A stretch of 63,891 bases of DNA, filler included, from Chrysochromulina tobinii (taxonomy: Eukaryota), in the NCBI GenBank assembly GCA_001275005.1. It is 8 parts of 8 records of this genome, joined end to end, with 100 filler letters (N's around TTAATTAATTAA, not from the genome) between each part and the next. Parts side by side here need not be neighbours in the genome. Positions count along the whole stretch, not along the records: positions 50,345 to 62,663 come from JWZX01000788.1; 7 more parts are not named here. One strand, written 5' to 3'. Below, piece after piece: positions 28,589 through 62,763 of the stretch. The notes under the pieces were generated by a model, which ran no database searches, was not told the origin of the DNA, and saw nothing but the letters and a program-made list of their open reading frames with translations. The position numbers were made by a program, and so were the translations under genes. Positions within the stretch are counted from its first letter, which is position 1, and each line of letters starts with the position of its first letter.

Positions 28589-31084
28589 CCTACATGAAGA
28601 AGACGCAGACCTTCTCGTCTCGCGTGAGCGGCCCCGCACGTGAAGTGTCTCTGTGAATGCCTACATGCACGGGCTTGCACGGGCCTGAGTCGAAATGGGG
28701 GGGGAGGCGCGTCCCTGTTTTACGCGGAGCGCGGCGCGCGCTCAATTTACGCGCATCACATGGCGCTTCTCGTCAGTGCCGATGGAATAAGATGCAGGAC
28801 CGCAGCCACAAGCAGCGCAAAGATACGGCGCCGTCTTGGGCGTTATGCTTCCCCCCTTCTGATGAGATTTGGACAATACTTAACGCTAACACTTGTTATT
28901 TACACGCGGAGCGTTCCTTGTGTTGCAGCACGAAGCAACAGAGCCCTTCCGGCCTCTGCTGCTGGCGCCGCGCAAAGGTATCCGTCTGCACAACCGTTGG
29001 CCTGGCCCCGAGCGCTGACGCATGGTCTCGCGTGCTCCCATGCCCAGCGCCGTGCCGCGCGCGCGCGCGTGGCGCCAGCCCCGCAGCGCCCGCGTCACTC
29101 AATTGCGCTGATCACGCCCGCGCCAAGCACTGCGCTGGGCGCGGACGCGCGCGAGCCAACCCTAGTGGCCGCACGCCGGCGATCGATATCACGCCACTCA
29201 TCGCGCGCTACCCGCCCGCCTGCCTTCCTACGCAGACTACATCCTGAGACTTCAAGACACCGAACCCGAGAGCCTCGAGAACATATTGCGCCTTCTGCTT
29301 GTCGCATTTTCACTCGTCATCGCCTTGCCGGCGGCGTTCGACGCACAGGACGCCCTTCAGTTCGAGGTGCAGTCCCCGCTTCAGCTCGAGGTGCGATCTC
29401 CGCCCAAGTCCCGCCCTCTTCGCCCCGCCGCCACGCGAGTTCAACACGATAGCCCCGCCACAGCACACTCCACTCTGCTCGCACACCACCCCAAGCGCAC
29501 ACATCACAATGGACGCGCCGCGGCACTAGAACGCGGGCAAGACGATCCACCCCATGATCTACGTCGTCATCAACCTCTTCAGAGCCCAGGGATACCAACC
29601 CACCTACCACAGGTGCCCCCCAGCCCGGCCGGCCGCCACGCATGCGGCGCAGCTTCGGGTCGGCCTTGCTGCTGCGCGCGCAAGGCCGGTGCGCATGGTG
29701 CACGCGCACGCGCACGAGGCCGTGTGCGCGAGTGCGATATCTGCACCCGCACCTGCCCGACTCCGCGCCCGCCGAGGCGCGCCTGCCTCAGCGCGATGCA
29801 ACTTGCGCTGGCCATCGGCACGTGCGAGAGCGCCGCCTCGCCTGTTGTGCTGACGGCTTGCGCGTTGCTCCTCCGGTGCAGGCAGCCGCAGGTGCGAGCG
29901 GTCGGGCTCGACGGCCACCGCGCTCTCGACATCTCCGCCATGACCGGCAGGCGCGACGTCGACACCACGGTCACGAGGATCCGGCCGCCATCACGCCCGC
30001 GGGCTCTGCCGCTTGGCCAGGCGGCGCGAAGCCTGTGCCTGTGAAGCCTGTGAGCCGGGCGCGGGCGTCCTCGAGGCTGCGGCCCCGTCGGCGCACTGCC
30101 CGACCCGCTCACCATCGAGTACGGCCCCGTCGATTCCAGCCTAGTCATCGGCGCCACGCGAATCAAGGCGTTGCCACGCCGCCTCTCGCCACGGGTCCAC
30201 CACCGCCTCTCGCAGTGCACACTCACCCGTGTAGCATTCACATTCATCTACACCGCATGCACCACGCACTCACGTCACCGCCTGACACTTGCAGCCCGCT
30301 TCCACTCCACCGCCCGTGCCCCAGCTGACACGTTTCTCGTGCCTGCGCGCAGCCCTCGCAAGACAAGACCTTCTCGTCGCCCACCGCGGTCGGCGAGACC
30401 CCTGGTTCGTCCTACCAGCTTCATGAGGACAACAACGCCTCGGCCGCCGCCGGCCAGACGACCGCCACGGCGCTCACCTCGACGGCCACCCAATCGGACG
30501 AGACTTACTCGTGCGAGCTCGCCACGATCAATGGCGAACCTGGATCGCTCTACCAGCGCACCGAGGGCAACGCATCGGCCGCTTCTTCCGAGCAGGTGAT
30601 CGCCAGCAGTACCGAATGGCGACCACGGCGTGCTCTTTCCGCCGCGCAACGGCCCGTCTCTCTCGCCTCTGGCCGCGGCGACCTCTCTCGCCTCCGCCTC
30701 AACGTGCCCGTCTCCAACGTGCCCGTTCTGGTCTTTGATCTGACCCTTGCATTTCACCGTGCCCACGCTCCGCAGACGTGGTACTGCATCGATATCACCG
30801 TCTCCATCGCGGTGGCTTTCGCCGCCGTGGCTACGGCCGTTGAGTCGTCGGTCGCTGCGGTCCTCACCTCCGCCGCGGCCGCCACAACCCTGCTCGGCGG
30901 CGACTTCAAGGATCGCCTCTCGGGCTATAGCATCGCCATCATCGCCGCGGTTGCCGTGCTCGCCGCAGTCGCCTCCTGCAGCCGATGGATCTCCGACCCT
31001 GAGCGGGAACTGAAAACGGGTACCAACCTTTCCGGTGGGTTTCTCCGTCCACTCCCGAAGCTCTCGACCTCCGGTTGCCTCAGG

Positions 31085-34000
31085 ATGGCACGGTTCGTTC
31101 TGGTGCTCTTGCTTTGTCCCGGGGTCTTCTCTGTGGAGAGCGGCCCAACCGTCAGCCAGACAGCCCCTGCGCCCGAAGTGCAGGCTGCTCACAAGCACGT
31201 CCCAAGTGATTCGCCAAGGAGCCCCTCCCGCTCGCCGCCACCAACTTCAGATGAGCGTCACGAAAGGCGTCGACTCCTTTTCCACGGCCACACGCCGCAC
31301 GGCCACTCGCCGCCGCCACCGCCACCGCCGACACCGCCGCCACCGCCATCACCGGCACCGCCGCCCCCAGTGGTGAACGGATTGCCGCTTTGCCCTAATT
31401 GCGGCATTTGTTCATCGACAACTCTCACACTTCCTGCCTACACGAATGAGTATTACTACAAGACCACCATGGTGATGCCTTGCAGTGCTTGTTCAAGTGT
31501 TGCCAGTGGAGGAGGACGAATGCCCGTCTACCAAGCGCAGACTGGTACTGGGTCCTGGCTGCATGTATACGTGTGGTTCGACTGCGCGACTGGGAGATGG
31601 ACCCGATCTGTAGTTACTTCTAGTGGTCCTTTCCCCGCGGGAACCATTATTGATTCTGCTCCAGCGTGGAGCTCATGCCCGTACAGTGGCGCTGCATCAT
31701 GCCCGCTGCAGCCCTCATACTACACATGCAGCAGCTGCATGGCCGCCCGAGCCGACAACGTGTGGTGCGCCGCGGGCGCACTTTGTGCATCCTCTGCTCT
31801 TACAGGCACCTCGCTGCTTCCTGGCGATCGCGTCCTCTGCCCACAAAGCGCCTGGGTGGGCAGCAGCGGCTGCGTGGCGTCGACCGTCACCGACCCTTAC
31901 TACGAGACGAACGCCTGGGCGTACACTCTGATCAACCTGCAGCCCGCCTGGGCAGCGGGCTACACTGGTGCTGGCGTGACGATCAACATTGTTGATGATG
32001 GGCCCGATGAGACGCACCCCGATTTTTCGGGCAAGTATGATGCGTTGGGGTCGTGCCCGACGCACACCACCGGCAGCCACGGGACCACGACGGCTGCGAT
32101 CGCGCTCGCAGCCGGCAACGGCCAGTGCTCTCGCGGCGTCGCGTATGGTGCGACGCTGTCCAAGTGCGGTATGCACGAAACCGACACGAATAGGTTCATC
32201 GGCAGCTTGACCCGAAACCACATCTCATCCAACTCGTGGGGGACCAACTCGTGCGCTAGTTTTGGCGACGAGCGGCGCAAGCTCCGGCAGCGCCAGCTGC
32301 AGGGGTGCCCCTTTGCGGCCACGGCCGCCTCGGGCACCAGCCCATGCAGCGCGTTCCAGTGCGCCGGGGCCAGCTGGACGTCGCCGCCGAGCATGTGCAA
32401 CACGGTCATCTCGACCTACTGCCAGAACGCCTATAACTACGACGCGGACGGCGAGTGCGCCTCGTGGACGTACCTCTGGACGTTTTGCTTTTACACAGGA
32501 GAGCTGAACTGGGCGACCCAACGGGTCCTGCAGCGTGGCGTCCTCGAGGGGCGCAGCGGGCGCGGCATCGTGTACGTCATGTCGTCGGGCAACGAACATT
32601 CATCTGGCGAGGACGTCAACATGGAGCGGAAAATTCTCTCGCGCTTCACTATCTTCGTCGGCGCCACCGACAAGCTCGGCTTGCACTCGTATTACTCGGA
32701 GACGGGCTCGTCGCTCTTCATCTCCGCGCCGGGTGGCGACACAACTCAGCACCTCAACAACTGGCACGTCGCGGCAACTGGCAGCGGCTGTGCCGAGCAG
32801 GGGCAGGGAACTTCGTATGCATGCCCCGTCGTCTCGGGCGTGGTCGCGCTCATGCTCCAAGCCAATCCGCTGCTCGGCTGGCGCGACGTGCAGGGGATCC
32901 TCGCGGCGACAACGAGCCGAAATGACCCCACGAGCTCCCTCTGGACCACGAACGCGGCCGGCTTCATCCATAACATTAAGTACGGCTTCGGCATGGTCGA
33001 CGCCGGCGCGGCCGTGGCCGCCGCGCTGTCGTGGACCAACTGGGGGATCGAGCGGCGCATTTTTGCGAGCTCGTCGCAGCAGCTCACTGTCCCGTACAAT
33101 GGCTCGACGCTGTCGACCAGTGTCACGGTCGGCGCACAGAGTCAGGCGTGGGCGATCGAGTGGATCGAAATCTTCCTCAACCTCGACCACTCGTCGCGCG
33201 GCGACTTGCAGCTCGAACTCACGTCGCCCTCTGGCACGCACTCCGTCCTGATCCCCGGCCCGCGGCCCGAGATTTCGAACCCGCCGGTTATGGGCTGCTC
33301 GGCCGCGGCCGACACGTGCTCGACGAAAGACAATGGAGTTTGCGACAACCCTTCAACTTGTGAGTGCGATTACAACGACTGTCTTGCGGCGAACTGGACG
33401 GGCGCGAACGGGCAGCCCTCGCTGTACCTGCCACGCTTCAATTGGAAGATGACGAGCGTGCGTAGCTGGGGCGAAAGCCCGGTGGGCACGTGGAGGCTCG
33501 CGATCCGCGATCGGCGGCTCGCGAACGGTGTACAAAGTTCGCTGCTCAAGAGCTGGAACCTGCTCATCTACGGCCACCACGGCACCGCCACCCGCCTGAG
33601 CAATCCGCCTTCGCCCTCGCCCCCGCCGCCTTCGCCCTCGCCCCCGCCGCCTTCAAATCTGATCTGCACCAATACGTGCACTTACGCCAATCAAGGCACC
33701 TGCGATGACGGTGGGCCAGGCGCCGAAGGCTGCCCACAAGGCTGTGAGTACATATCCGTCTGCGCCCTCGGGACCGACTGCAATGACTGCGGCCCGCGCT
33801 TGATACTCCCTCCACAGCCACCGTCGCCGCCACCGTCGCCGCCACCGACTTTTTTACCGAAATGTGCGTCGTGCGGCGTTTGTTCATGGCCTGCTTTTAC
33901 GAATGCTAACTTCCCGAATGAGGTTTACTACAAGACCAGCTACTATTTCACTTGCAGTGCTTGTTCAAGTGTTTCCACAGGAGGACAAATGTACGTCTAC

Positions 34001-34180
34001 CAAGCATGGAATGATGGTACTGCCCTACCTTGGAATGTGTACGTGTGGTTCAATTGCATGACTGGGATATGGACCCGATCTGTCGTTGGTTTCTGCTCTC
34101 CTAATATCTATGCCTGTCCTGGGCCTTACCCAACGGGAACCGTGATTGGAGTTCCTGTGTGGAGTTCATGCCCGGACAGT
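31085..34180 (+). CDS. Secreted kexin/furin-like subtilase (S8 + P-domain) with Pro-rich linkers and Cys-rich modules (3'-truncated)
   Basis: Signal MARFVLVLLLC; triad IVDDG, SHGT, GTSYACPVVSG; oxyanion SGN; P-domain HSSRGDLQLELTSPSGT; CDDGG...GTDCNDCGPR module. Confidence 0.9.
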
Positions 34181-34725: not shown

Positions 34726-37700
34726 TCATCGACGATCTGCTCGCCGCCGCACGGTCGCCCCTGCTCCGTTTCGTTTCTCGAGCGCGGTCGAGGTGACGAG
34801 AGCCTCCGCCAGGGCCTTGCAAATAACGTACAGCTCGGCTGTGCGGTGGAACGGAGTGTCACCCTCCTCAACAACGTAGCGCACGTCGCTTCTGGCGGCG
34901 ACGACCGGGTAGTCTGGGTCCACGGAGGGGCGGTTGATGCAGATCGGGTCGGCCCATTTGGTGTGGACTATGGCGGCGATGCTGCAGGTGGGGAGTGCGG
35001 CGGGCCGAGGTCGTCTCTGATCCGCCTCCGGCGCTCGCGTGGGAAGGGAGTGGACGCCGCCGACGTCGAGTGCGCGCAGTATTGCGGCGATCTGTGGGTG
35101 GTGTTCGAGTTCGGGGATGATCCGTGGCTCGTCCGGCAGGCATCCTGAGTGGTTAACGAGGTGACTGAATGCTGCCTCATGGCCGTGGTCCGAGAGGCAC
35201 TCGAGGCCGGCGCCATGCCGTACAGAGGTTCCTCCTTGCGGCCCGTCACTGTCGGTCGTGAGGTGCACGAGAGAGTAAGTCATCTGCAGGGCTCCGCAGA
35301 TCGTGCCAAGGCCGAAGTGGTCGGGGGGGCAATCTCCGTGGTTAGGGCCAGCTGGTACGCCTGAGGGGTCGACCACGGGCTGTGCCTGCGTGGGCTCTGG
35401 TGTCGGGGTGCGGCGGCGGCCAGCGCCTCGGAGACGCAAGATCATGCCGACCGGGGGCGGCGCTACGGGCAATCCGGGTACGACAACTAGCGCTGGCGCC
35501 GGAGCTGGTACATCTTCGGGCACGGTAGCCGTCGCCTGGGGCGGCGTGGGAACAGGGGCGTGGGAGACGTCGTGGTGCACGGAGGCAACCCTCGTGACCG
35601 TAATCGGCGCCGGAGTGTCCCAGAGAGCGATGGAGAGCTGGACCGTCACGCCGTTCATCGGGACGATCGTCGCGCAGAGCGCCGCGTAGGTCGTGGTGCG
35701 GCGGCTGGTCGGGTAGCAGGTAGTACTGCATGTTGCGGTGCGGGGCCGGGCGCAGGAGGCCTCGGCGCAAGCGCGCTGCCTTCTCGAATTCCTGCGGGCT
35801 TCGCGGATGCGGCGGCGTCGCGGTTGTAGAGGCTGCTCGCGGCACTTGGCTTCGATTGGGCCGACAGGCTCACGGCGTCGTAGGTGCAGCACACGTTGCT
35901 GGGACGCGTAGTGCCAAGGGCTTCGGCTGGATCGCGGTATGACGGCCATCGTGTGCTTGCATCGGTGGGATTCGATAGCGGCTACAAGCCTACGGCGGCG
36001 TTCCTTGGGGCTATCACCAACGGTATCCTGACGCCCCACGAGTGAGCAGCGGATGTGGTGTGCGCTTAACGAGTTGGGGGGGAAGTGGGGCTTCGGTTCC
36101 CTTACCTGCTCCGAGTCCTCCTCCTCCTTGGTCTTCGCCTTCGGCGTGGCCTTGCCGAACACTCTCGGGGCTGCCCCTCGTAGGTAGGGCGCATGCGGCG
36201 TCGAGTGCAAAATGGATGCGTACAGTGCGATGCCGAGTAGGGATGGCGTGGGAGTGTTAATGGCAGTGAACAGGAGTCGCACGTGGGTTGCCCGCTCATC
36301 GTTCGCCTGCATCTTGCCGACTTCCCTCGTCACGAAGATAGGCTTCCATTCGCAAACTTCCGGTCTCGGCCAGGTTTCGGGCAGCGCGAATTCCTTGTTG
36401 AACTCGCGCATCTCGTCGCGCCTCTTCCATGCCTCGTGTTGCTCACGGGCTTGACGTACTTCGAGCTGCTGCGATGCGAGTGCTCGCTGCGCGTCATGCA
36501 CTTGCGTTTGCTGTAGCTCGCGCGCTTTGACTTTGCGGGTCTTGCGTGCATCTCGCGCTCGGCGTACCTTACGCAGTTTCCATGCTGTGGATCGTGTCTT
36601 CTTGGTCTTCTTGGGTGCAGCGAGCTGATCGAACGTCTCGTGCTCGGCCTTGCGCTTGACGGTCTGGTCGGTCGCCTCGTGTGCGGCCAGTCCGGTGCGT
36701 GCCTCACGCGTCGCTCGCGGCTCGCACTCCTCAAGGCACTCGGGCTCCTCACATGCAGCAAGCTCGCCGTGCACCTTAGGGAGTTCGACGGCTGGCGCCT
36801 TCGGCTCCTTGGTCGTCTCGCCCGGAGAAATAGCGGCACCCTCGGCGGCCTCATGTAAGACTTGGAGTGCGGTGTCGATCCATGAGGCGATCTCGGCGGC
36901 TGCGTCTCCGGGGGGCACGTTCACGAGCAGCGAGTGCAACTCGTCCAAGGACAGCCCGTCGAGCAGCATGCCCGTGATCTTGCCAGGCATCGTCACGTTG
37001 TGGCACTCGATGAGTTTATAGAGACGCTCCCCGAGCATCGGGAGGGGCTCCGGGTGCGCGAGGAGTGCGTGCAAGTCGAGCGGCATCGAGTGGCGCTGCT
37101 GCTCGAGGAGCTTCAACACGGCCGCCTCCGCGTGCGTGGTAAGGTGCGTGACGGGGTCCATCTCCACGTGCACCACGGGCCTACTCGTGGTCGTCTCCAG
37201 CTCCTTGGGCGTGGCCGACACGTCGGTCTTCTCGAGCTCGCGCTGCGCGGGTGTCGCCGGCTCCTTGGGCGCGGTCGGCACGGCGGTCTTCTCGGGCTTG
37301 TGCGGCGCGGGCGTCGCCAACTTGTCGGTCTGCTTGGCCTCGGGCTCCCACGGCTTCAAAAGTCGCGTGCCGACCAGAGAGTCGTAGTGGTTCGACCCGT
37401 ATACGACGTCGATCGGTGGGATACTGGCGTTGAATGCCATGGGCGACTCGCCGAGGACGGCCCAGAGGTGGAAGCGGCCGGGGCCGACGTTCGTGAAGAC
37501 CCTGATGCATGCACGGTAGACATGCGCGGATGCGACGAGCTCGGGTATGCCGGCCCACACACGTTCATGCTGCATGCGGTTACAGTACTCTTGCCATTGC
37601 TCGCCTGTCTCGCCGAATGCGAGGTCGGCGAGGGTGGTGCCGGCGAACGGGTGGTTCGGGTTGGCCTTGAGCCAGGTCGTCACCTGCTCACGCATCTCCT

Positions 37701-38292
37701 TGGCGTCGCCCAGCTTGAGCGAGTTGAGGAGCGAGTGGGGGAGGCAAGTGCCATCGCGTGGAATCTTCACGACAGTGCCGGAGAAAACGTCTGCGATGCG
37801 CGTCGCGGTGGTGTTGTCGGCCGTCCAGAATGCATGCCAAGGCTTGGCAGCGTCGATGGAGGCGATCGTGGCCGGCGTGCTGCGCTCGGTGACGTTGCTC
37901 AGCTTTGCGTTGCGCAACTTCGCGTCGTGTGGCTTCGTGGCGATCGCGGCCTGCTTCGGCTGCAGTTGCGCCGCGGGGTTGGCCGCAGCGCACTTCTTGA
38001 CGGCCGTCGACGATGGGGAGGGCGCGCGCGGCTTGGTGGTGTCGATGACGGTGCTCGGGGAGGTAGCGCTGCGCGTGGTGCGCGTGCGCGTGCGCTCGCC
38101 GTGCGACTGCGCGACGATGCTTGCCAGCTTTGCCGCCTGCGGTGTTGCTGCGGCCGCGGCTTGCGTCGTCGGGATCGTCGTCGACGATGAGTTTTCCAGC
38201 ACTCGCGATGGTGAAGGAGGCGTCGGAAAGCTCTCGTTCGTGGGCTTCTTCTGGTGCCCGGGTTGATTGTAGACGAGATACGGGTCCTTGGG
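34726..38292 (-). CDS. 5'-truncated intronless polyprotein with OTU cysteine protease and MLLE/PABC domain; probably mobile-element derived
   Basis: IPRDGTCLPHS...WAGIPEL...NHYDSL (OTU Cys/His); LGERLYKLI..GKITGMLLD (MLLE); frame open to the contig edge. Confidence 0.75.
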   Translation of the reverse strand, partial: PKDPYLVYNQPGHQKKPTNESFPTPPSPSRVLENSSSTTIPTTQAAAAATPQAAKLASIVAQSHGERTRTRTTRSATSPSTVIDTTKPRAPSPSSTAVKKCAAANPAAQLQPKQAAIATKPHDAKLRNAKLSNVTERSTPATIASIDAAKPWHAFWTADNTTATRIADVFSGTVVKIPRDGTCLPHSLLNSLKLGDAKEMREQVTTWLKANPNHPFAGTTLADLAFGETGEQWQEYCNRMQHERVWAGIPELVASAHVYRACIRVFTNVGPGRFHLWAVLGESPMAFNASIPPIDVVYGSNHYDSLVGTRLLKPWEPEAKQTDKLATPAPHKPEKTAVPTAPKEPATPAQRELEKTDVSATPKELETTTSRPVVHVEMDPVTHLTTHAEAAVLKLLEQQRHSMPLDLHALLAHPEPLPMLGERLYKLIECHNVTMPGKITGMLLDGLSLDELHSLLVNVPPGDAAAEIASWIDTALQVLHEAAEGAAISPGETTKEPKAPAVELPKVHGELAACEEPECLEECEPRATREARTGLAAHEATDQTVKRKAEHETFDQLAAPKKTKKTRSTAWKLRKVRRARDARKTRKVKARELQQTQVHDAQRALASQQLEVRQAREQHEAWKRRDEMREFNKEFALPETWPRPEVCEWKPIFVTREVGKMQANDERATHVRLLFTAINTPTPSLLGIALYASILHSTPHAPYLRGAAPRVFGKATPKAKTKEEEDSEQVREPKPHFPPNSLSAHHIRCSLVGRQDTVGDSPKERRRRLVAAIESHRCKHTMAVIPRSSRSPWHYASQQRVLHLRRREPVGPIEAKCREQPLQPRRRRIREARRNSRRQRACAEASCARPRTATCSTTCYPTSRRTTTYAALCATIVPMNGVTVQLSIALWDTPAPITVTRVASVHHDVSHAPVPTPPQATATVPEDVPAPAPALVVVPGLPVAPPPVGMILRLRGAGRRRTPTPEPTQAQPVVDPSGVPAGPNHGDCPPDHFGLGTICGALQMTYSLVHLTTDSDGPQGGTSVRHGAGLECLSDHGHEAAFSHLVNHSGCLPDEPRIIPELEHHPQIAAILRALDVGGVHSLPTRAPEADQRRPRPAALPTCSIAAIVHTKWADPICINRPSVDPDYPVVAARSDVRYVVEEGDTPFHRTAELYVICKALAEALVTSTALEKRNGAGATVRRRADRR

Positions 38293-50084: not shown

Positions 50085-50443
50085 CTGCGCCGTGGTCAGC
50101 GCCGTGGTCAGCGCCGTGGTGAGCATCGGGGTTGTCAGGGGAGGTCCAGTGGACGGCGGGGGGGCGCCCGGCGTACTCGGCGCCAAGGACATGTTTCCAC
50201 CACTCTGTTGTGCCCTGACGCTCGCAAAGTGGGAGGGGGGAGGGNNNNNNNNNNNNNNNNNNNNNNNNNNNNNNNNNNNNNNNNNNNNTTAATTAATTAA
50301 NNNNNNNNNNNNNNNNNNNNNNNNNNNNNNNNNNNNNNNNNNNNGCAGGGACCGGGTTGTCGCGCTCACCAGGCTGCTTGTGTAGCTCTGATGAACAGCA
50401 ATTCAAGTCAAACACGCGACCAAGTTTACGCACGCGGAGTCGA

Positions 50444-53400
50444 ATGGTGAAGCCCCCCTTGTCGATGAAGACAAAGCTCGACGTGGCCTCCAAGGCTCCC
50501 AAGCTCTTCATCCCGGGGAAAGCTTTCCCCGTGCCTTCAACAGCAGCGCCCGTGCCCGTGCCAACACCGGCATCAGCACCTTCCCGATCCGCTGGAGGGG
50601 CCGCCGTCACCGCACTCGGGCTCGCCGCCAACGCGGAGAAGGCGGCAGCGGAGAAGGCGGTAGTCATGGATGTGGCACCTGGCCGTGGATGGGACTACAT
50701 CCAAGGTAAGGGTGCAGCTGTGCTTCGACACCTCGAGACAGGTCATGCTGTTGGTCTTTCGGATGGCTCAAATGGCTATGTACATCTTAAGCAGGGTGAT
50801 ACAGCGCCTGAACTGGTCGAGTTTCCCCTCGGCACTCAACCACAGGATTGGAGTGCCGAAGAGCGCAGATTGCTTGGCATTCTCATGACTTCGCCAGGCG
50901 CTCATCCGCTGAGCACATCGTTGGGCTGCACCACCACGTTTGGTCGTTGGAAGTTCACTATCGAGGACAGTGGCCTTGTCATGCTACATAATTCGTCTCA
51001 AGGTGAGTCACCGGAGAGAACGCGCTGTCTCGCAGAGCATGGATACGAACGACCACGGAGCGCTCACCACCTAACGGAAATTGTGGCCAAACATGCAGCT
51101 TTGCAGGGGAAGACCGCCGGCACCAACGCGCCGGCGCTCGCGCTCGCGATCGCGACTCCGAGCCTCTTCGGAGGCGCACCGGCGCCAGCTGCCGGCCTTT
51201 TCAGAAGCACACCGGCCGCCGGCCTTTTCAGAAGCACACCGGCGCCAGCTGCCGGCCTTTTCAGAAGCACAACGGCGCCAGCTGCCGGGTTTTTCGTAGC
51301 CCCGGCGCCAGCTGCCGGCCTTTTCGGAGGCGCACCGGCGCCGGCTGTCAACCCCTTCAACGCGCCAGCCGCCGGCCTTTTCGGCGGCGCACCGGCGCCA
51401 GCCGCCGGCCTTTTCGGAGGCGCACCGGCGCCAGCCGCCGGCCCTTTCGGAGGCGCGCAGGCGCCAGCTGCCGGCCTTTTCGTAGCCCCGGCGCCAGCCG
51501 CCGGCCTTTTCGGAGGCGCACCGGCGCCAGCTGCCGGCCTTTTCGGAGGCGCACCAGCGCCAGCCGCCGGCCTTTTCGGCGGCGCACCGGCGCCAGCTGC
51601 CGGCCTTTTCAGAAGTACAACGGCGCCAGCTGCCGGGGTTTTCGTAGCCCCGGCGCCAGCTGCCGGCCTTTTCGGAGGCGCACCGGCGCCGGCTGTCAAC
51701 CCCTTCAACGCGCCAGCCGCCGGCCTCTTCGGAGGCGCACCGGCGCCAGCTGCCGGCCTTTTCGGAGGCGCACCGGCGCCAGCTGTCAACCCCTTCAACG
51801 CGCCAGCCGCCGGCCTTTTCGGCGGCGCACCGGCGCCAGCCGCCGGCCATTTCGGAGGCGCACCGGCGCCAGCCGCCGGCCCTTTCGGAGGCGCACAGGC
51901 GCCAGCTGCCGGGTTTTTCGTAGCCCCGGCGCCAGCCGCCGGCCTTTTCGGAGGCGCACCGGCGCCAGCTGCCGGCCTTTTCGGAGGCGCACCAGCGCCA
52001 GCTGCCGGCCTTTTCGGCGGCGCACCGGCGCCAGCTGCCGGCCTTTTCAGGAGCACACCGGTGCCAGCTGCCGGGTTTTTCGTAGCCCCGGCGCCAGCTG
52101 CCGGCCTTTTCGGAGGCGCACCGGCGCCAGCTGTCAACCCCTTCAATGCGCCAGCCGCCAGCCTCTTCGGAGGCGCACCGGCGCCAGCCGCCGGCCTTTT
52201 CGGAGGCGCACCGGCGCCAGCTGCCGGCCTCTTCGGAGGCGCACCGGCGCCAGCTGCCGGCCTTTTCGGAGGCGCACCGGCGCCAGGTGCCGGTTTTTTC
52301 GTAGCCCCGGCGCCAGCTGCCGGCCTTTTCGGAGGCGCACCAGCGCCAGCTGCCGGCCTTTTCGGAGGCGCACCGGCGCCAGCCGCCGGCCTTTTTGGAG
52401 GCGCACCGGCGCCAGCTGTCAACCCCTTCAACGCGCCAGCTGCCGGCCTCTTCGGAGGCGCACCGGAGCCAGCTGTCAACCCCTTCAACGCGCCAGGATC
52501 TCCGCCGACCTTCACCTTTGGAAGTGCCTCGATAACATTTGGCGCGCCCGCGCCCGCGCCCGCTGTCGGCTTCGGCGACTTTGGCGGTGGTGCCGCTGGC
52601 TTCGGCGATGGTGCCGCCGGCTTTGGCGGTGGTGCCGCCGGCGTTAGCGGGACGGCCGCGGCCGGCACGGGCGACCCACCGTATAAGCCGGTGCAGGAGA
52701 GGGAGCAAGTCGCGGGCGCGCCCGGCCAAGTGCAGGTATACCAGTACTGCTCGATCACCAAGATGCCTCAGTACGGAGCCAAATCGTTGGAGGAGCTCCG
52801 GTTCGAGGACTACGCCAAGGGTAATACGGGTGCAGTCGTACTTCGGGTGGAGGGCGCGGGTGCTTACGACCATGTCCAAGGTGAGTACAAGGTGGACGTC
52901 GCCGCTGGCCCTTGCGCTGCTGAGTGTGCAGATAAGGCGACTCGTGTTTGCGTCGAGTTTGATGGCGGGAAAGGAAGGAACAACTACATCGCTTCGACTG
53001 AGCTCAATCTGACAAGGCTCGCCGGCGGGTACCGGATGGGCGACCGCGTGACGACTCGCGTCGTTTGTGGTAAAGTCGCGGTTGGGGAGGCAGGCACGGT
53101 GATTGGCCCTTGCAGCTCTCAGGTGGACGATAAGGCGACTCGTGTTTGCGTCGAGTTTGATGGCGGGAAAGGACGGTTGAACTACATCGCTTCGACTGAA
53201 CTCCGTCTGACAAGGCTCGCCGGCGGGTACCGGAGGGGCGACCGCGTGACAGCTGGCTTGAACATGTACCCAGTCGCGGTTGGGGACGCAGGCACGGTGA
53301 TTGGCCCTTGCACTGCTGAGTGTGCAGATCAGGCGAATCGTGTCTGCGTCGAGTTTGATGGTGGAAAGGGACGGATCAACTGCCCTGCTTCGATTCTGAT

Positions 53401-56400
53401 GGAGCCGTTGCCACCTCGATTAAGCCAAGCCTTGACAGACAATCATGTGATGTTGAATCAGCTCGACCTGGGCGTGATCGATTGGATGGTAGCCTCGTAC
53501 AAGAAATGCGAATCCGATCAGGAGCGTGATTTTGTGCTCAAGATTATTCTGCAGACCCTCGTCCATGGGTGGCCCCAGTCTTCCAAGCAGGCGGACTGTG
53601 GACGTTACAAGTACTGGAACAGACTGGCACTCGTGCCGAGGAGTCGGCAAGCATTGCAAGCAGCGCTACGGGAGTACTCCGTTAACTACAAACGAGAGTT
53701 ACAAACGAGAGTCTCCGATTACACAGAATTCCTTCATAGTGCGGATAACCAATTCTACCAACAGGTGGAAGCGTGGGCACGGGAGGATGCCATCCTACGC
53801 GAGGCCAAGGAGAAGCAACGGCAGGCGCTCGAGGAGAAGAAGCAGGCCGAAATCAAGGAGCGGGAGGAACGCAGGAAGGCGGTTGAAGCGAGGCAGGCGA
53901 AAGGGAATGTTTCGTCAAGGCTCGAGGACGCTAACCCGGGGAAGAAGAAACCCTGGAGTGTGGATGAATTGGGTTCGGAGCTCTTCCGCCTTGCATTCGA
54001 GGGCGGAGATACGCGACAGCTCGAGCCCCTTCTCAACAAGGTCAGCAACCTGAGCCTCAAGAAGCGGACCAAGGTGCGCGAGTGGGTCGACGATTCGGGT
54101 GCGACGCCGCTGTATGCGGCCGCGTACAACGGCAACGTCGACGCACTCAAGCTGCTCCTACGTGCGCAGTTTGCGCCCGACATGTTCCACACCAAAGATG
54201 GCGTGACGCCCCTCTACGCGGCGTGTGACCGTGGTCATCTGGCGACGGTGAAGGAGCTCGTCAAGGGGCGTGCGGACCCGATGCTCAGCATGCGGGACAC
54301 CGCCTTCACCCCCTTGACCATTGCCGAGACCATCGCCGAGACCAAGGGGACGAAGAGTGTGCACCAGTCGATCGTGGAGCTGCTGCGTGCACACGTGAAC
54401 TCGCCGCAGGTGCTTACGGCAGCGCCGACCAAAAGCTCCGCTGTGCCGACCATGAAGACCCTCACGAAGCTTTTCGAGGACGAGGGTGAGGAGGGGGTCA
54501 AGAACAAGAAGCAACTCGAGGAACTGAAGTTGCAACTCGAGCAAGTCGGGAAGAACAAGAAGCAACTCGAGCAACTCGGGAAGAACAAGTTTGAGAAACA
54601 AAGGGCTTGGGGAGGAGGAGGAGTGATCGAGGAGGAGGGGGAGGAGGGGGAGGAGGGGGAGGAAGCGGAGGGCAGGAAGGAGGGGGAGAACAGGGAGGAC
54701 AGGGAGGACAGAGAGGAGGGGGAGGGCAGGGAGGAGGGTGGTTTCTTCACAAGCGTCGAAACACGTTCGAATGGAAAGGAGGGGGAGGAGCAGCAGCCAG
54801 AGGAGAGCCACTTTCATGTGGAGCAGCAGAGCATCGGGGAGGCAGAGCGTGAGGTGGAGCGAGTCGCTCATCGTCCGGCCTTGAGCTCGGGATTGAGCTC
54901 GGGATTGAGCTCAGCCACGCTCGACAGTGCGACCGTGCGTCCGGCCGAGTCCTTCGACTCCCTCATCACGGCCCTTCACTCTAGTGCCTCAAGCTCTGAT
55001 GTGTTGCGTGCTGCTCTGAAGCAGCTCGACTGTGTCGACGAGGACAGCCTCGATGACGCTCGCAAGAGGCGCTGGCGTGAGGCTCTGAGTTGGGGCCAAG
55101 AGCACCTCGACCACCTGACGATGAAGGAGGCCACCTCGCTCTACGCCCTGGAATGCGAGCTGCCTGTCGACCTTGGACCGAAAAGCTGCTTCTCGGCCCA
55201 CACCATTCTCGTGGTGGACAATAGCGCCTCGATGCGGCAGGTCGATGTGCACACGGGCACCGCTGAGGGCGACATCTCACGGACAGAGGCGGCTAAGCGG
55301 CTACTCACGACACACTTCCTCAAGACGCAGATCGATGCGGGCGCGCAGGCGCACGAGCGCGTGTCGCTGATCAAGATCCAGAGGGGTTCGACGAGGCCCC
55401 CGTTTGCCCTCTTCCCGCTCGATCATAGCCTCGCTGACCGCATCCTGCGCGCCATCGACGAGCCTCGAGGGCATGGCGACTACCTGCCCGCACTCGAGCT
55501 GCTCGCCAAGCTGGTGGAGCTCACAGCCCCTTTCATGAAGGAGAGCGCCAAGACGTCAATCCTCTTCTTCTCCGACGGCAAGCCCTCCGATCACATCGAT
55601 GAGCGCGTGCTGCCCGCGCACCTACGGCAGGCGCTGTCGGAGCTGCACAAGGCAGTGCAGCGGAGCGGCAGTTACATCGAGCAGTTCTCGCTCCTTGGCT
55701 TTGGCGAGGCCGATGAGGCGATGCTGCGCATGATGGCAGAGGCGTACCCCGCGCGCGTGGCTGAGTACCGCGCCGTGAGCGGGCCAGAGGGGTACAAGGC
55801 GCTTGAGACGGCCGTGACCACCTTTGCCTCGTCTGTGGCGGTCTCTCGCCTCTCGTCGGTCTCAGTGACCTTGGACAAGAAGCAGCGTGCGTTGCGTCGC
55901 GTCGACCGCTCCCTGGGCGAGCGCTTCTACCGTTACGAGGACTGCAAGGTGCTGCTCCCGCCAGAGAGGCTAATTCACCTCCATGATTGCCTCTGATATA
56001 CCCGAACGACTCTGATAGCCTCTGATGACCTCTGGTGGCCTATTGATCGCATCCCTCATCAGGTGCTGCTCCCGCCAGAGAGGCTCGGGGACTTTAACTC
56101 GGATCTGCTCAGGCTGCCTGAAGGGCACACCCTTCTGATCTCGTCCAAGCTACTTGGCCACGGCGGCGAGCGCAACGCGTTCGTAGCCTTCTTCCTGTCC
56201 AAGAACAGCTTCACCACTGAAGATGAGGAGTGGGTGGTCAAGGAGAGTCGACACGAGCGCGCGGAGCACGAAGATGACGACTTTCATCGCAAGGCGCTCG
56301 TCACGCAGCATGCGGCGCACATGCTCGCGAAGCGCTTCAACGACGATGCCGAGGCTCTCGAGATAGACGGCCTTCCGAGCGTCTCGTACATGAACCACTG

Positions 56401-59400
56401 CTTCATCAAGACGGGGCGCGTAACGCGCCGTGCCGGCGAGAAGGCAGATCCAGATGAGATCCCGCGTCGTTCGCTCTTTGCGGAGCGCAAGATTGAAGGT
56501 ACCTTCCGCAAGTGGAACACGAATTTCGGCGCCGTGGTCAAGACGATCGAACTCGATGATGAGGGCGGCGACGCCGCCGCGGGCGATGGGCGTGTGCGCC
56601 TCTCGTCCGATTGTGTGCCGCAAGCGTTCTCGCATTGGACGATTGACTTCTCCGGCCGGCCAGAATCCACCTTCAAGGGGCCCGACGGGACGGCGGGCCG
56701 GTGCCTCGTGTGCGACTTGCAGGGATGCTTCGACAAGGACGGCTCGCTCAACGGCTCGCCCAACACCTTCCTCTTCTCGGATCCGGTGATCCATTCCGAT
56801 CTTGGCACGCCGCACCTGTTTGGCGCCACGGACTTGGGTAGAAATGGGATCGCCGCGTTCCTGCGCTCGCACAAGTGCAACGACGTGTGCCGGCTGCTCC
56901 ACCTGCCGGAGAACAAGGACTTTGTCGAAGAGAACGTGGGACAGCTCGAGAACTCAAGTGTGAACACGTCCTTCATCTCGGTGGCCCAGACGAAACATCT
57001 GGCCTTGCGCGCCGCCGAGCGCAAGATTAACCATCGCGAGATGCAGGCCGCCAAGAAGCACGGCGAGAAGTACCGTGGGCTCAACGGCAACTTCCAGCAC
57101 GAGCTCGAGGACATCAGGCTCGTGACGAGCTCGGACCAGAAGGTGGGGGTCACGGTCATCAAGCAAGGGGCGCCGCGCCTGGACGCTCCCGGCGACGCTC
57201 CCGACGCCCGTCGCGCCCAGTACGACGCTCCCGACGCCCGACGCGCCCAGTACGACGCCCGCAGCGGCGTCGGGAGCGGTAGCAGCGGCGCTGGGGGCGG
57301 TAGCTCTCAAAAGAAGCCGGTCATCTTGTCGCTGCCCCGCGCCCCGCGACCAGCGCCGCCAATCATCACTCTTGCGCCACCCAAACCACGGACGCCACCG
57401 ACACTGCCCACGCCGGAGCTACTGGCTCCCTCCGGTGTCGTTGAACCGGTACCCGTTCCAGGGCATGCTCTCACACCCAGTGCGCCTCATGGTGAACGCG
57501 GAGGCGGGCGCGGAGGGCGTGGCGGCCGAGGCGGAGGCCGCGGTTTGGTGCACGCGGTCGCTGCTGCAGCTGCTCTGATGGCTGCAACGCCAGGTGGATC
57601 ACCAGCGGAGGTGGCTGCAGTACATCCACGTCCAGGAGCTGCATCGGAGATGACTGCAGTACATGCCCTGCCCCTGCCAGCTGCTCTGGAGGCAGGCCGA
57701 GGCGGCCGAGGGGGCCGAGGCGGCCGAGGCGGCCGAGGCCTGCATCTTGCGTCCGCCACGTCTTCGGCACTCATGATGAGCCTCACAGGGCCTGAGGGCA
57801 CCAAGTTTCTCGAGTCGATGGCGGCCGGCGTGTCGTCGTCTGCGCTGACGCACCTTGCACGCAGCCTGCCTCCGCAGGCCCTCCCATTCCCCGCTCAGCT
57901 GCTGCCTGCACGTGGCGCCGAGAGCACCGGACCACCCAACGTGGCCCTCGCCGCTGGTGTGTCGCCAACTGCCCTACCTGCCATGGAAGCTTTGCAGAGC
58001 CTTCCGAGCTTCCCCACAGCCGCCAGCTGCTCTCCTCCTGCTGAGGAAGTTGGGCGGCCCGATCCCTCTCGTCCGCCTCCCTCAAAAGCCTTGGCACCCT
58101 ACTCAAGAGAGCCGGCTGCTGAGCCTGTGCCTAAGCTCGGGGCTGCTGAGCCTGCTGCTGAGCCTGCTGCTGAGCCGCCCGGGATTGGGGCGAAGCTGGC
58201 GGCCAAAGGCGCCGAGTTGGAGTTGCCGGTCGCTGATCAACTCGCTCTACGAGCCCAAGCGGCCAAGATCGCCACTGCCCTGGCTGTCGCTAAGGAGCCC
58301 CGTACGATCGACGCCGCGCCTGAGCCCATATCAGCGCCTGCGAGCGTGTCTGCGGGTGCAGAGGCCTCCGCCGCCAGAGCCGAAGTGGAGGTGAAGGTCG
58401 GCGCGGAGGTCACCCCGGAGGTCATCTCGGAGGAGGCGATGGCGATTCGTAAGGACTGGCTCTTAAGGCAAGATCAGGCAAAGCGCGGCAACCTTCCCAA
58501 GATCAGCTTTGTGGAGTGGTATCGCCGGCTAACGCTCTTAGATCAGCGCCTTCTCACTCCACACCTCACCGAGGTGGAGAAAGAAGAGATCCGGGCGAAC
58601 TCGACAGGGTTCATGGAGGTCGTCACTCGATCGTCCGCGGCGCTCAAGGAGAAGGGTGAGGGGGCGAAGCCGACTGGCGACGTAGCCCTACGTTCGCAGC
58701 AGGAGGTGCCCAAAACAGCGCTTGCGCCCGGACGCCTAGCGAACCAATTTGGCGCGCTGGCAGCTGTGAGCCCCGAGGACACTCCCCTGACCGACAAGGA
58801 GATGCGCAAACAGGAGAAAAAGGAGCGCCGAGCCGAAGAACGGCGTCTGCAGGAACATGAGCGGCAATTCCATCCCTCATCTGTTCCCCCACAGGAGCGT
58901 CTCCAGGAGCACGGGCGGGCTGGAGCCGAGGCGCGAGAGGCGCCCCGAGAGGCACCCCCACGGAAAGTTGGAGCGCCAAAGGTTGCCGATGCAGAGAACG
59001 GCTTGCTCGAGGCACGGCTTGCGTCGAAGCACTCGACCGCGACGGTGGGCTCGGGAGCTCACAGTAAGCCGCACGTGCACAAGAAGATGACGTCCAAGGA
59101 GATCGATGCCTACACGACTCCCAAAGCGCTCCGTCGCGCGTTGCTGGATCGCGGCATCGCACAAGCCGTGGTGGAACAGTTCGAGGATAAGCCCGATGAG
59201 CTGAAGCGCCTGAGAGCGCATGCTAAGACGCTCCCCGGCGTGTGCTCCGAGGCGCGCTCGCGAGGACGCATTCACGTGGAAGGTGTCCACGTGGACCAAG
59301 TGGAAGCTCAGGAAATCGAGCGCATCTCTGAATTTATCAATAACCCTTCGCAATCCGCCAAGGGGGCAGCCTATGCAGACACGATCCAAAATGTGGTGAA

Positions 59401-59629
59401 CGATGTGGCACAGAAGGCCAGTGACGTGTTCAGCTACGTGAAGGATGCTGTTCTAGGCAGCACGAGTGCGTCGGCGCCGCCGGCGGTGGCGGACAAGGAC
59501 GATGAGGATGAACATGGCCACGGTGCAGCTACGGCACAGGTCAACGAGAGCAGCGAGGAAGGCAAGGAGCGCGAAAGAAAAGAGCAACTGAAAAAACTCC
59601 GCGCGCGCGCACGTGCGGCGCGTGCATGA
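50444..59629 (+). CDS. ~3000-aa multidomain alpha-kinase: GLFG repeats, GLEBS, SH3-like repeats, ankyrin, acidic tract, vWA, alpha-kinase, RGG/low-complexity tail; intron 55949-56062
   Basis: Splicing AAG|GT..CCCTCATCAG|GT joins ORFs 50357-55996 and 56063-59629 in frame; GGERNAF, WVVKE, FRKWNTNFG, QAFSHWT, CDLQG, DPVIH, DLGRNGI, HKCNDVC; VVDNSASM..FFSDGKP; GATPLYAAA. Confidence 0.88.
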
Positions 59630-60156
59630 GAGTGAGAAACCTTATACTTCCGATGGGGCCCAGGAGTACTAGCATGAGAACTACGAGTAGGCTGGCGCTG
59701 TGTGCGGCGCGCAGCGCATGCGCTGTGTGTACTGGTTTCGTACAAACCTCGAATTCCGCTGTGTGTACAGTACAAAAGGCAGTAGATGTGTGCGACTGTA
59801 CTTACGAAGTTTGGTACGAACGAAGTCGAAGATCGAAGTCGGCTCCTCGTCGGCGGCTAAACTTACGGGACCGGCGAGGCTGTATACGCCTTGTTGGGAG
59901 TTGAGCGTAGTTGGACGACGTTTGGGACTTCATAAGAAAGTCACCTTCAGATAATGGCAAAATTGCTTTGTGTCTCCACGGGACCTGTGGTCGTGCGACT
60001 TGCCGATATGGCAGTTTAACAAGCAAGCAAGCGTGCTTGCTTGCTTGCAGTTTAACGTCACAACGTCCGCGCCGAGATAATGCAAAAATGGGGAGGCGTA
60101 ACGGCTAATTAATTCTCGAATTCGTCGTGTCGTTCGTCTCGACCCCCGGGGGCACG

Positions 60157-60954
60157 ATGGTGGCCTTCACGATTCGCATTGTCGGCTTATTTGCGGTCGC
60201 GAGCGTTGCATGCGCGTTCACTGCAGGTCCCTTGGCTCCCGCCCTACGGCGATCGGCAGTAGTTGCTGGTGGTAGCTCTGACTATCTTCCACATTGGCGG
60301 TCTCAGGCCTCTGTTGCAATGCCTCGAGCAGCTGTGGTGAAGGCGGTCGCCCCTCGGCCAGGGCCGGCCGAGACAGGGGCGAGCGTGATGTCATTTATTA
60401 CTGCGTTGGGCACGCGCAACGCCGTCACTGCAACCGCTGCGTTTGTCCTGGCGGTTATAGGCGCATCCATTCTCCGCAAACGTGGAGAAGTCCGCCGTCT
60501 CAAGCGAGCAGAGGAGAAGAAGGGGGAGAAGACGGTGGAGAAGAAGGCGCCGCCTCCGAAAAAGGTGGAGAAGAAAGTGGAGAGCAAAGCTGGGAAAGGG
60601 GCGGAGACAAAGTCCGAGACGGACGCAAGCACGATTTTGGACTTCGGAGCAGCCATCTTCGGCGCTGCAGTCGATGCGACGGTCTGGGCGGGGACGGCGA
60701 TCGCAGAGGAGGGTGTCAAGGTGCTTGCTGTGCCGACGGTGGCAGCAGAGGCTGCCGCCATGCCGAAAGAGCAGGAGGAGAAGGAGGCAGCGCCCGAGAA
60801 GGTGCCCGCGAAGGTGTCCGCGAAGGTGTCCGCGATGGACGACACGCGTGCCTTCATTCCGACACCGAAATTCGCGGGCCCGAAGAAGAATTTCGTCTTC
60901 AAGGCGGGCCCAGAGGGCGTTGGCTATTACAATCGAGATTACACATGGGAATGA
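60157..60954 (+). CDS. Probable plastid-targeted membrane protein
   Basis: Signal peptide ending VACAF (ASAF-like) + Ala/Arg/Ser transit-like region; TM helix; C-terminal FxGxKxNFVFKxGPEGVGYY motif. Confidence 0.65.
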   Translation: MVAFTIRIVGLFAVASVACAFTAGPLAPALRRSAVVAGGSSDYLPHWRSQASVAMPRAAVVKAVAPRPGPAETGASVMSFITALGTRNAVTATAAFVLAVIGASILRKRGEVRRLKRAEEKKGEKTVEKKAPPPKKVEKKVESKAGKGAETKSETDASTILDFGAAIFGAAVDATVWAGTAIAEEGVKVLAVPTVAAEAAAMPKEQEEKEAAPEKVPAKVSAKVSAMDDTRAFIPTPKFAGPKKNFVFKAGPEGVGYYNRDYTWE

Positions 60955-61371
60955 TGCTAGAATCGGAGGGTATCAGTGCAGCAGCGTGCAGCAGTCAGTG
61001 ACAATCAGCGCCAACAATCGTGTGCGAGCCGCATGACGCCAGCATGTATATTCTGAATCTGAGGTGTCTGTTGGATGCGTCACTGGTCGTTTGAGGTCGG
61101 GGGCGGTCGGGGGCGGCGTGGTGCGTTGCGGTGCATTGCGAAGAATGTTGATTCCACCGCAAACCGCGCGCTCGAGAGGACTGGTGCCTCGACGGTCCCG
61201 AGAGCACATTTCAGGCGTTTGGTTCGCGAAGTTTGTTGTTAATATTCATGCGTGCACCGTGCCCAGAGGCCATCCCAGAGGCAGCGCGTTCAAAGGTTCG
61301 CATGCGGTATGTTTCCCTGGGCATGGCGAAGGCCAATACAACAATGTGATGCATTCTTGAGGTAACCTAAC

Positions 61372-62403
61372 TTACGCGAGACGGATCTGCGGCGGCGAGG
61401 GCGGCGGCGGCGGCGGCGGCGTCAGCGGCGGCGTCAGCGGCGGTGTCATAGCGGGCATCGCCTCTGCCTCCGCCTGCTGTAGCCACGACACCGCGTGCCG
61501 ACGAGCACTCGGCGATGGCGTCTCCTGCCGCCTTGGCGGCGGCGAGGTCAATGCGGGCTCCATCGCTCCCTGCACTGCGAGCGCGGCGCACAGGGCCTCA
61601 CGCATGTGTGGCACGCCGGATTGCTTTGCGAACTCATTCACCAGCCACTGCATTCCCACCCCCCTCGCCCTCCCCGCGGGCTTCGACGAGTGCGCGTTGG
61701 GCACGACGAGACTCTCGGGCATCTCCGGCTCGAGATTCTTGAACACGCTCACGAGATCCGCCTCAACCTTCGTGAGCCTCGAGCCCGCGACCTTTGCGAG
61801 GGACACCTGCGGGCGGCCCCAAAAGCGCTCCTGCGCCTTCGAGACGGGTATGTAATGCTGGGGGCTGCGCTCCGTCTTCTTGGGAAAGCGCGAATACTCG
61901 GACGAGGGCGAGCCAGGCCTCGACACCCCGCTTGGGGACGCCTGTGTGCTGCCCCAAAAGCGCTCCTGCGCCTTCGAGTCAGGTACGAAATGCTGCGGGC
62001 TGCGCTCGTGCTTCTTGGGGAAGCGCGAATACTCGGACGAGGGCGAGCCCGCGGGCCTCGGCACCCCGCTTGAGGCTTTGACGCGGCTGGGCGGCGGGTG
62101 CACGCTCGTCGTCTCGTTCCTTCGTGGCGGTGATGCGTCGTAGGTATGTTTGATGGTAGGCAATGGCGTCTTGACCTTAGCCTCACCCTCGCCGGCCTTT
62201 GCCAAGCTTCGCCGATCGGATCGCCCGCGCGCCACCGCCTGCAAGCGCGCCGCAGCGTAGTAGTCCTGCTCGACGTCCCGAAACTCATTCAGGTCCACGT
62301 CTTCGTCGGCATACTCGGCGTGCGCGTCGGCCGTGAATGCGCGCGGCGGCGTCCACATTTCTGACGCGGGGCGTTTGAACAAGAATTCGAAAACGTTTTG
62401 CAT
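61372..62403 (-). CDS. Hypothetical protein with IQ motif and a duplicated ~40-aa unit
   Basis: AAARLQAVARGRSDRR; two copies of GSPSSEYSRFPKKxERSPQH..SKAQERFWG. Confidence 0.6.
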   Translation of the reverse strand: MQNVFEFLFKRPASEMWTPPRAFTADAHAEYADEDVDLNEFRDVEQDYYAAARLQAVARGRSDRRSLAKAGEGEAKVKTPLPTIKHTYDASPPRRNETTSVHPPPSRVKASSGVPRPAGSPSSEYSRFPKKHERSPQHFVPDSKAQERFWGSTQASPSGVSRPGSPSSEYSRFPKKTERSPQHYIPVSKAQERFWGRPQVSLAKVAGSRLTKVEADLVSVFKNLEPEMPESLVVPNAHSSKPAGRARGVGMQWLVNEFAKQSGVPHMREALCAALAVQGAMEPALTSPPPRRQETPSPSARRHAVSWLQQAEAEAMPAMTPPLTPPLTPPPPPPPSPPQIRLA

Positions 62404-62763
62404 GCGAGTTCACACTCGAAAGTGTCTTTGTTCTCACAAAAGTTTCTTCGGCAATGGCCTCTCTTCGCAACGGCCAACGCTGAACGGACGCGAAAGGCGA
62501 AACTGAAACCGAGGGGGGCCTCAGCCGCACGGACAGTCAGTCAGTCAGTCAGTTTCGTCGTCCGCGGAGGTTCCGCACTCAGTTTGTAATCAGGGTATGA
62601 GGAAGGGGTGCAAATCCAGATATTAATCCCTCCCCTACCCCCTTGGGTAAATCACTCAGTTTGNNNNNNNNNNNNNNNNNNNNNNNNNNNNNNNNNNNNN
62701 NNNNNNNTTAATTAATTAANNNNNNNNNNNNNNNNNNNNNNNNNNNNNNNNNNNNNNNNNNNN

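Follow-up and report, generated by a model that had tools for sequence, protein, structure and literature searches.

GLEBS, the sequence bound by the mRNA-export factor Rae1/Gle2, is known as part of Nup98/Nup116 and of the Bub1 family, and fusions of NUP98 are known mainly as somatic cancer lesions. The C-terminal autopeptidase of Nup98 anchors this protein in the nuclear pore. In leukaemia, fusions such as NUP98::HOXA9, NUP98::NSD1 and NUP98::KDM5A form nuclear condensates or puncta (PMC11423334). Bub1/BubR1 combine a kinase with a GLEBS-type motif that tethers it to a WD40 propeller adaptor, and Bub1 binds Bub3 (PMC3061984). A non-canonical GLEBS protein, APIP12 of rice, has been tied to targeting by a pathogen effector (PMC5311014). 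Here, we describe a gene that combines such a motif with an alpha-kinase. It lies in a stretch of 63,891 nucleotides (the window, filler included) from Chrysochromulina tobinii (assembly GCA_001275005.1), in which contigs are linked by runs of N; the gene is inside the single contig 50345-62663. Judged from its homologs, of which those with names come from C. parva and C. tobinii, the source very likely belongs to the haptophyte genus Chrysochromulina.

The gene places a GLFG array and a full GLEBS in front of SH3-like repeats, ankyrin repeats, a vWA domain and an alpha-kinase. We report its architecture, the transcription of its parts and their splicing, the donor genes and the breakpoint. 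The reading that we prefer, with a probability of roughly 0.5, is that GLEBS binds Rae1 and that the low-charge array enters FG condensates, which would bring the predicted active kinase to Rae1-mRNA export complexes.

GLEBS, GLFG array and kinase

The earlier note on this DNA had named repeats, GLEBS, SH3-like repeats, ankyrins, vWA domain and kinase, and a hidden Markov model scan against Pfam together with the further analyses below finds all of them. Nup98_GLEBS (PF21240) scores 31.4 bits, or 36.7 bits when the motif is searched alone (cut-off 27), so that the failure to match the profile, which the note had allowed for, did not occur. All eight PDB matches at E<=10 are Nup98 chains, and Atlas gives no usable match for the motif. 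Over 53 residues, it aligns without gaps to human Nup98 159-211 (profile of 20 sequences; 3MMY chain B), keeps all six columns that are invariant in the 20-sequence alignment, and differs from the Chrysochromulina Nup98 P0008 at three positions, all in variable columns. The motif first noticed at ~52745-52813 is therefore genuine, with YCSITK beginning at 52745, but that span covers only its last 23 residues. Counted from this alignment, E43/E44 of the window GLEBS correspond to human E201/E202, the residues that form salt bridges to Rae1 (PMC3783196). By analogy with Nup98, the motif likely binds Rae1 through E43/E44.

The GLFG/GFF/NPF repeats are confirmed by counts in the single frame P0001, which is open from the contig edge (50345-55996) and contains 21 GLFG, 34 FG, 5 GFF and 6 NPF; Nucleoporin_FG scores 47.1 bits (cut-off 32.2). 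With 6.4 FG per 100 amino acids and 1.6% charged residues over 501 amino acids, this is a low-charge FG domain; phase-separating Nup98 domains have 6.3-10.3 FG per 100 and a median of 2.5% charged residues (PMC4283134). The number of GLFG motifs is 16-23 in versions of this gene, 7-10 in a sister gene (L003) and 1-3 in the host Nup98. Copying of the array from the host Nup98 was rejected, since there is no blastn match to L004 or L006-L008; its source may be either local expansion of a 33-bp repeat or another FG gene. A separate 48-bp piece at 52496-52543, coding for GSPPTFTFGSASITFG, is missing from L003. It matches a higher-depth RNA contig (X17 record 1) with two differences, and a second FG gene is possibly its donor.

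Downstream, Pfam finds Ank_2 (45.6 bits; cut-off 27.3), VWA_2 (31.5; 27) and, on exon 2, Alpha_kinase (PF02816, 104.2; 21.3). The DxSxS motif of the vWA domain (DNSAS) fits the metal-ion-dependent adhesion site (MIDAS) consensus. Spliced RNA contigs at 55532-57210 and 55555-57500 place this domain directly N-terminal to the kinase in one transcript. The kinase matches eEF2K, MHCK A, TRPM7 and ALPK1, contains the catalytic Lys, C-D-x-Q-G, D-P and the zinc-binding His/Cys, and is predicted to be active. K60, E141, H191, D218, Q220, D240, H270, C272 and C276 are invariant in 15 aligned sequences. The roles given to the catalytic and zinc residues follow in part from PMC2827801.

The SH3-like repeats are borne out by their fold. 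An alignment-based model reaches a predicted local distance difference test (pLDDT) score of 83.6 and shows two SH3-like barrels, as compared with only 39.6 for a single-sequence fold. Its best structural match has a Z of 10.4 and a root-mean-square deviation of 1.2 over 56 aligned residues (3fc3_A), and KOW and SH3 chains reach Z 7.9-8.2. The repeats match KOW, Tudor, SH3 and MIB-repeat families, and several sub-families fit. Their closest relatives (~70%) are in P0004/P0005, where MIB-SH3, C1, a PCMT methyltransferase, five to seven repeats, ankyrins and TIR occur in one protein.

Gene structure, transcription and origin of the junction

The gene extends over ~50444-59629, beyond the 51160..56900 first marked, and codes for 3023 amino acids in the spliced frame that starts at the ATG at 50444. 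The kinase had been placed in the same uninterrupted reading frame as the motifs; instead, the stop at 55994-55996 sits within a 114-bp intron, the only RNA-proven one, and the kinase is in exon 2. The parts of the gene are:

50444..55948, +: exon 1, from the putative ATG at 50444; P0018 from other assemblies begins at the same Met
50666..51115, +: uncharacterised domain X, 89% amino acid identity to the sister GLEBS gene L003/P0035
51161..52490, +: GLFG/NPF array, a 33-bp minisatellite with the unit AGLFGGAPAPA (Pfam PF13634)
52573..52663, +: AAGFGG repeats, copied from Nup98 along with GLEBS (blastn)
52664..52822, +: full GLEBS (Pfam, PDB match, alignment)
52838..52908, +: VEGAG domain, cut off after the first 24 of its 105 positions; fusion junction at ~52905
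52907..53404, +: SH3-like beta-barrel repeats of 66 amino acids, one half and two whole (198-bp period, model)
53405..53953, +: likely helical, charged coiled-coil region, judged from sequence; no Pfam match above cut-off
54056..54325, +: ankyrin repeats (Pfam Ank_2)
55202..55582, +: vWA domain core with DxSxS (DNSAS) and SDG motifs (Pfam VWA_2)
55949..56062, +: 114-bp GT..AG intron, bracketed by a perfect 25-nt direct repeat
56156..56890, +: alpha-kinase domain of the eEF2K/MHCK fold, which retains its catalytic and zinc motifs (Pfam, alignment)
56891..59629, +: low-complexity C-terminal tail of ~900 amino acids; stop at 59627-59629, RNA cover to 59794

Domain X has neither a Pfam nor an Atlas match, and VEGAG is a name coined in this analysis. 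For the exon 2 protein, no identical entry was found. Short blocks of the C-terminal tail are conserved in P0051, P0052 and P0073.

Of 22 listed sequencing runs, 19 contain the window stretch, six of them RNA. The intron is spliced out in three of three RNA runs and retained in the one DNA run, so the RNA represents spliced message. RNA contigs tile most of 52470-59794, with the exception of the GA-rich repeats at ~54512-54835, which are nearly free of RNA contigs and carry no evidential weight. One contig (X19 record 9) enters the end of the GLFG array, and another, at 52859-52960 (X19 record 12), crosses the junction with zero differences.

Depth and loose contig ends reveal paralogs of the GLEBS and SH3 pieces in the same organism, and a false join by the assembler therefore had to be tested. 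Several paralogs share these pieces, and DNA depth rises two- to threefold over 52470-53255, as stitched paralogs might produce. On the other hand, exact-match DNA contigs run along the path at depth 76-100, as they do over the kinase, and the junction is bridged by RNA. Outside the array, 10,131 bases of the window recur unchanged in L001 and L002, which thus stem from the same strain. The junction is shared by two other alleles, P0017 and P0015, which show 10 and 13 substitutions, respectively, over the part compared; the array of P0017 is shorter. Both alleles lie in other assemblies, on contigs of 38 kb (P0017) and 43 kb (P0015), and keep the architecture as far as the vWA domain, with allelic changes. 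In their cluster of 28 members, at least 15 end ahead of the kinase because the gene calls stop at the intron. A chimeric assembly, which the earlier note had listed as refuting its proposal, is thus very improbable.

A canonical Nup98 (FG-GLEBS-FG-autopeptidase) exists as a separate gene (P0008, P0043, L006-L008), as the note had asked to be checked, and its transcript is visible in run X17, where GLEBS runs on into Nup98 sequence. In these gene calls, Nup98 ends right after the autopeptidase and has no fused Nup96. Positions 52573-52822 are 90-91% identical at the DNA level to the Nup98 loci L006-L008 (blastn), with 94% over GLEBS in L004. A longer stretch, 50648-52908, is 86-91% identical to the sister gene L003 (Ank-X-GLFG-GLEBS-VEGAG); this match ends at 52908, where the first 24 of 105 VEGAG positions abut the final 35 of an SH3-like repeat. 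The downstream half belongs to an older family, as illustrated by P0056, which has seven SH3-like repeats together with ankyrin, vWA and the beginning of the kinase. GLEBS is absent from all 43 alpha-kinase homologs found in a search limited to 509-2000 amino acids and including many partial gene calls, and a kinase tree of 32 of 44 sequences places the window kinase in no clade with strong support. By these comparisons, the gene is a young chimera, the GLEBS of which arrived via the sister gene and not straight from Nup98. In the order that we propose, a family of ankyrin genes with modular structure would first have acquired GLEBS from Nup98; an L003-type member would then have donated the X-GLFG-GLEBS block to the kinase gene, cutting two domains; finally, the array would have lengthened from 7-10 to 16-23 GLFG motifs.

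VEGAG itself is a mobile domain of ~105 amino acids (VLRVEGAGA...GLKDGVPCY...) without a Pfam match, and unrelated Chrysochromulina genes contain one copy of it or tandem copies (L003:6925-7260, L005, L010, L011). The 5' end of the intron duplicates the start of the next exon as the 25-nt direct repeat, and its 3' end is CCCTCATCAG. Similar repeat-bracketed units, some of them tandem, are found at 6287-6350 (+), 4024-4096 (-) and 7737-8233 (+) of the window, and the relatives P0046 and P0047 read through the intron position. Elsewhere in the window, 20598-25553 (-) is another modular gene with a 1652-amino acid open frame of 10 Sel1 and 18 armadillo repeats, while an OTU-like protease that also has an MLLE domain is encoded at 34729-38292 (-) and a subtilase with P-domains at 30329-34180 (+).

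GLEBS on other proteins and selection on the copy

With GLEBS alone as query, 13 proteins from several samples, rather than one genome, were found, and only two have an autopeptidase. The non-Nup98 proteins include Ank-GLEBS-ART-PARP (P0006), Ank-GLEBS-ARM (P0007) and FG-GLEBS-WW (P0038). Among 32 metagenome loci, 11 have an autopeptidase, and L014/L015 and L032 carry GLEBS on unrelated proteins. In L014:1635-3467 and L015:977-2809, a weakly PARP-like domain (Pfam E 0.13 for L014; BLAST E 0.004 to P0006; no PDB match) precedes three GLEBS, and no autopeptidase occurs within 13 kb. The 2212-amino acid protein of L032:8564-15202 combines GLEBS with TPR, KH, a C2H2 zinc finger and, by eye, a RING-like cysteine pattern.

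A search with the GLEBS profile gave 2373 clusters at E<=0.001, the best 150 of which were examined. Of the 147 that were new, 12 with an autopeptidase were set aside and 21 under 200 amino acids dropped; among the remaining 114, 22 have a clear non-pore domain (E<=1e-6), not counting P0112, the extra matches of which look repeat-driven. This domain is RING in 16 cases, including one that adds Deltex-C and another that adds a protein kinase; these cases cannot be taken as independent events because multi-GLEBS proteins are favoured in the list and some RING matches are related. The other six have Deltex-C, PARP, a TRAF finger, DUF4246, DnaJ and a SpoIIIAA-like domain, one each. Three of ten looked-up fusions have named sources, a plant (Castilleja foliolosa), a tunicate (Styela clava) and a prawn (Macrobrachium nipponense). 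Two single proteins stand out: P0203 has a protein kinase, two GLEBS, a RING and, by eye, a PARP-like middle, and P0115 joins three GLEBS to RING and Deltex-C. The note knew of no nucleoporin-type fusion to an alpha-kinase, and the 43 homologs contain none; GLEBS fusions as such recur in the genus and in other eukaryotes. Tentatively, the Nup98 GLEBS may be a portable Rae1-docking module that has been grafted repeatedly onto modifying enzymes (RING, Deltex, PARP/ART, kinases). Rae1 would then serve either as a general adaptor or as bait for viral proteins that block export, and Chrysochromulina would show this grafting in progress.

A comparison with Nup98 gives a ratio of replacement to silent substitution rates (dN/dS) of 0.17 for GLEBS (6 silent and 4 replacement changes; p=0.008), a value that takes in the Nup98 branch and compares different strains. 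Several further observations weigh against our reading. Relative to the sister fusions, dN/dS of GLEBS is not significantly reduced (0.27, p=0.20; 0.46, p=0.12); the silent bias among the array units is weak (11/31 vs 14/68; p=0.09); and the array contains 17.6% proline versus 3-9% in tested Nup98 spacers, although the host Nup98 is similar with 14-15%. In addition, no single RNA contig reaches from GLEBS to the kinase. Selection therefore provides suggestive but not settled evidence for a function of the fusion GLEBS.

The same data can be explained by a neutral passenger, an X-GLFG-GLEBS block that joined the kinase by chance, may bind Rae1 without being of use and will decay. The junction splits two domains with only 2-3 bases of likeness, and both stay broken, an outcome expected of random recombination. 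Next to GLEBS, domain X evolves as if neutral (dN/dS ~1.0, from 4 silent and 12 replacement changes), and the sister GLEBS of P0006 is degenerate, without the nearly invariant K40 and F47 and below the Pfam cut-off. Modules also turn up in other, unrelated arrangements; L010/L011, for example, have VEGAG but no GLEBS. Because the copy is so young (dS ~0.2 to Nup98, 0.03-0.08 to L003), an intact GLEBS proves little. Nevertheless, this explanation appears rather unlikely. Besides the dN/dS to Nup98, the EELR core is present in 29 of 29 listed GLEBS-bearing proteins, the array is longer than that of the sister gene and in frame in all versions seen, and the same kind of fusion occurs in distant lineages, often with several GLEBS copies. 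Moreover, free GLEBS ties up Rae1 in human cells, and mRNA export is blocked (PMC2133102); an expressed copy is therefore unlikely to be free of cost.

Proposed route to Rae1 and comparison with known systems

In the mechanism that we favour, GLEBS would dock the kinase protein on Rae1, the array would partition into FG condensates, and the kinase might act on Rae1-bound proteins. The earlier note had suggested a nuclear-pore or condensate-targeted kinase. Pfam finds no autopeptidase (PF04096) in P0001 or P0002, and a local profile detects it in P0008 and P0043 but not here. Because this anchor is absent, the protein would be expected to sit with Rae1 or in condensates, not at a fixed place in the pore, which favours the second part of the suggestion and weakens the first. 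Its behaviour would be closer to that of the NUP98 fusion proteins, which enter nuclear puncta (PMC11423334).

The same note had raised a decoy or sensor, in which a Rae1-loaded GLEBS serves as bait and a viral Rae1-Nup98 antagonist triggers the kinase, or ART/PARP in the sister gene. ART, PARP, RING, Deltex and TIR are common in defence proteins, and the first four are partner domains of GLEBS, while TIR occurs on the SH3-repeat relative P0004. The Rae1-Nup98 GLEBS complex is a target of animal viruses (PMC12666860), and lytic giant viruses of C. parva are known (10.64898/2026.01.07.698126). However, the known antagonists occupy the RNA pocket of Rae1 and not GLEBS (PMC12666860), we found no description of a Rae1 antagonist from an algal virus, and GLEBS is without sign of fast adaptive change. 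Pattern searches of viral contigs confirmed no relatives among 97 candidates for the GLEBS profile, 27 for the Nup98 GLEBS, five for the SH3 repeats and seven for the kinase, which does not establish absence. We consider a decoy improbable.

If the motif binds Rae1, it offers enzymes a route to mRNA export complexes, and the set of GLEBS-RING, GLEBS-PARP and GLEBS-kinase proteins could be tested by one Rae1-binding assay, with loss of binding upon an EE-to-KK exchange. A kinase directed to Rae1 would here be found in a freshwater alga with cultured giant viruses, in an inherited and expressed gene of NUP98-fusion design for which donor, intermediate and breakpoint are all readable. The literature, covered mostly as titles and abstract openings and largely from openly accessible papers, yielded no report of a GLEBS-alpha-kinase fusion or a GLEBS-enzyme family. 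The main text of the C. tobin genome paper has no mention of kinase, nucleoporin or ankyrin (PMC4580454).

Like Nup98/Nup116 (Rae1-Nup98 GLEBS, PDB 3MMY), the window protein has an FG domain of ~500 amino acids with Nup98-like FG density and low charge, and a full GLEBS with both contact glutamates. Different from them, it lacks the autopeptidase and an FG block after GLEBS, its array does not derive from the host Nup98, and it has a kinase. The rice protein APIP12 keeps a nucleoporin2 domain and has neither FG repeats nor an enzyme domain (PMC5311014). With Bub1/BubR1, the gene shares the docking logic of GLEBS plus kinase. Bub1, however, has TPR/KEN and a conventional kinase, while the window GLEBS is a near copy of that of Nup98; at E<=1, Pfam finds no TPR or Pkinase match in the window gene, which thus is not of the Bub1/BubR1 type.

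The vWA domain just in front of the alpha-kinase is found likewise in vWA-alpha-kinases such as Dictyostelium VwkA (PMC2827801), and the ankyrin and tail blocks are the same as in the SH3-like/Ank/vWA/alpha-kinase proteins P0046, P0047, P0056, P0057 and P0059. The kinase is 57-62% identical to its nearest full relatives. What sets the gene apart from these relatives is the GLEBS and GLFG array, present in 0 of 43 homologs, many of them partial gene calls. As in the leukaemic NUP98 fusions, N-terminal FG repeats and GLEBS are placed on an effector and no pore-targeting C-terminus is present. In contrast to them, the algal fusion is inherited, was made by duplication, leaves Nup98 intact and has a kinase rather than a chromatin protein as its partner.

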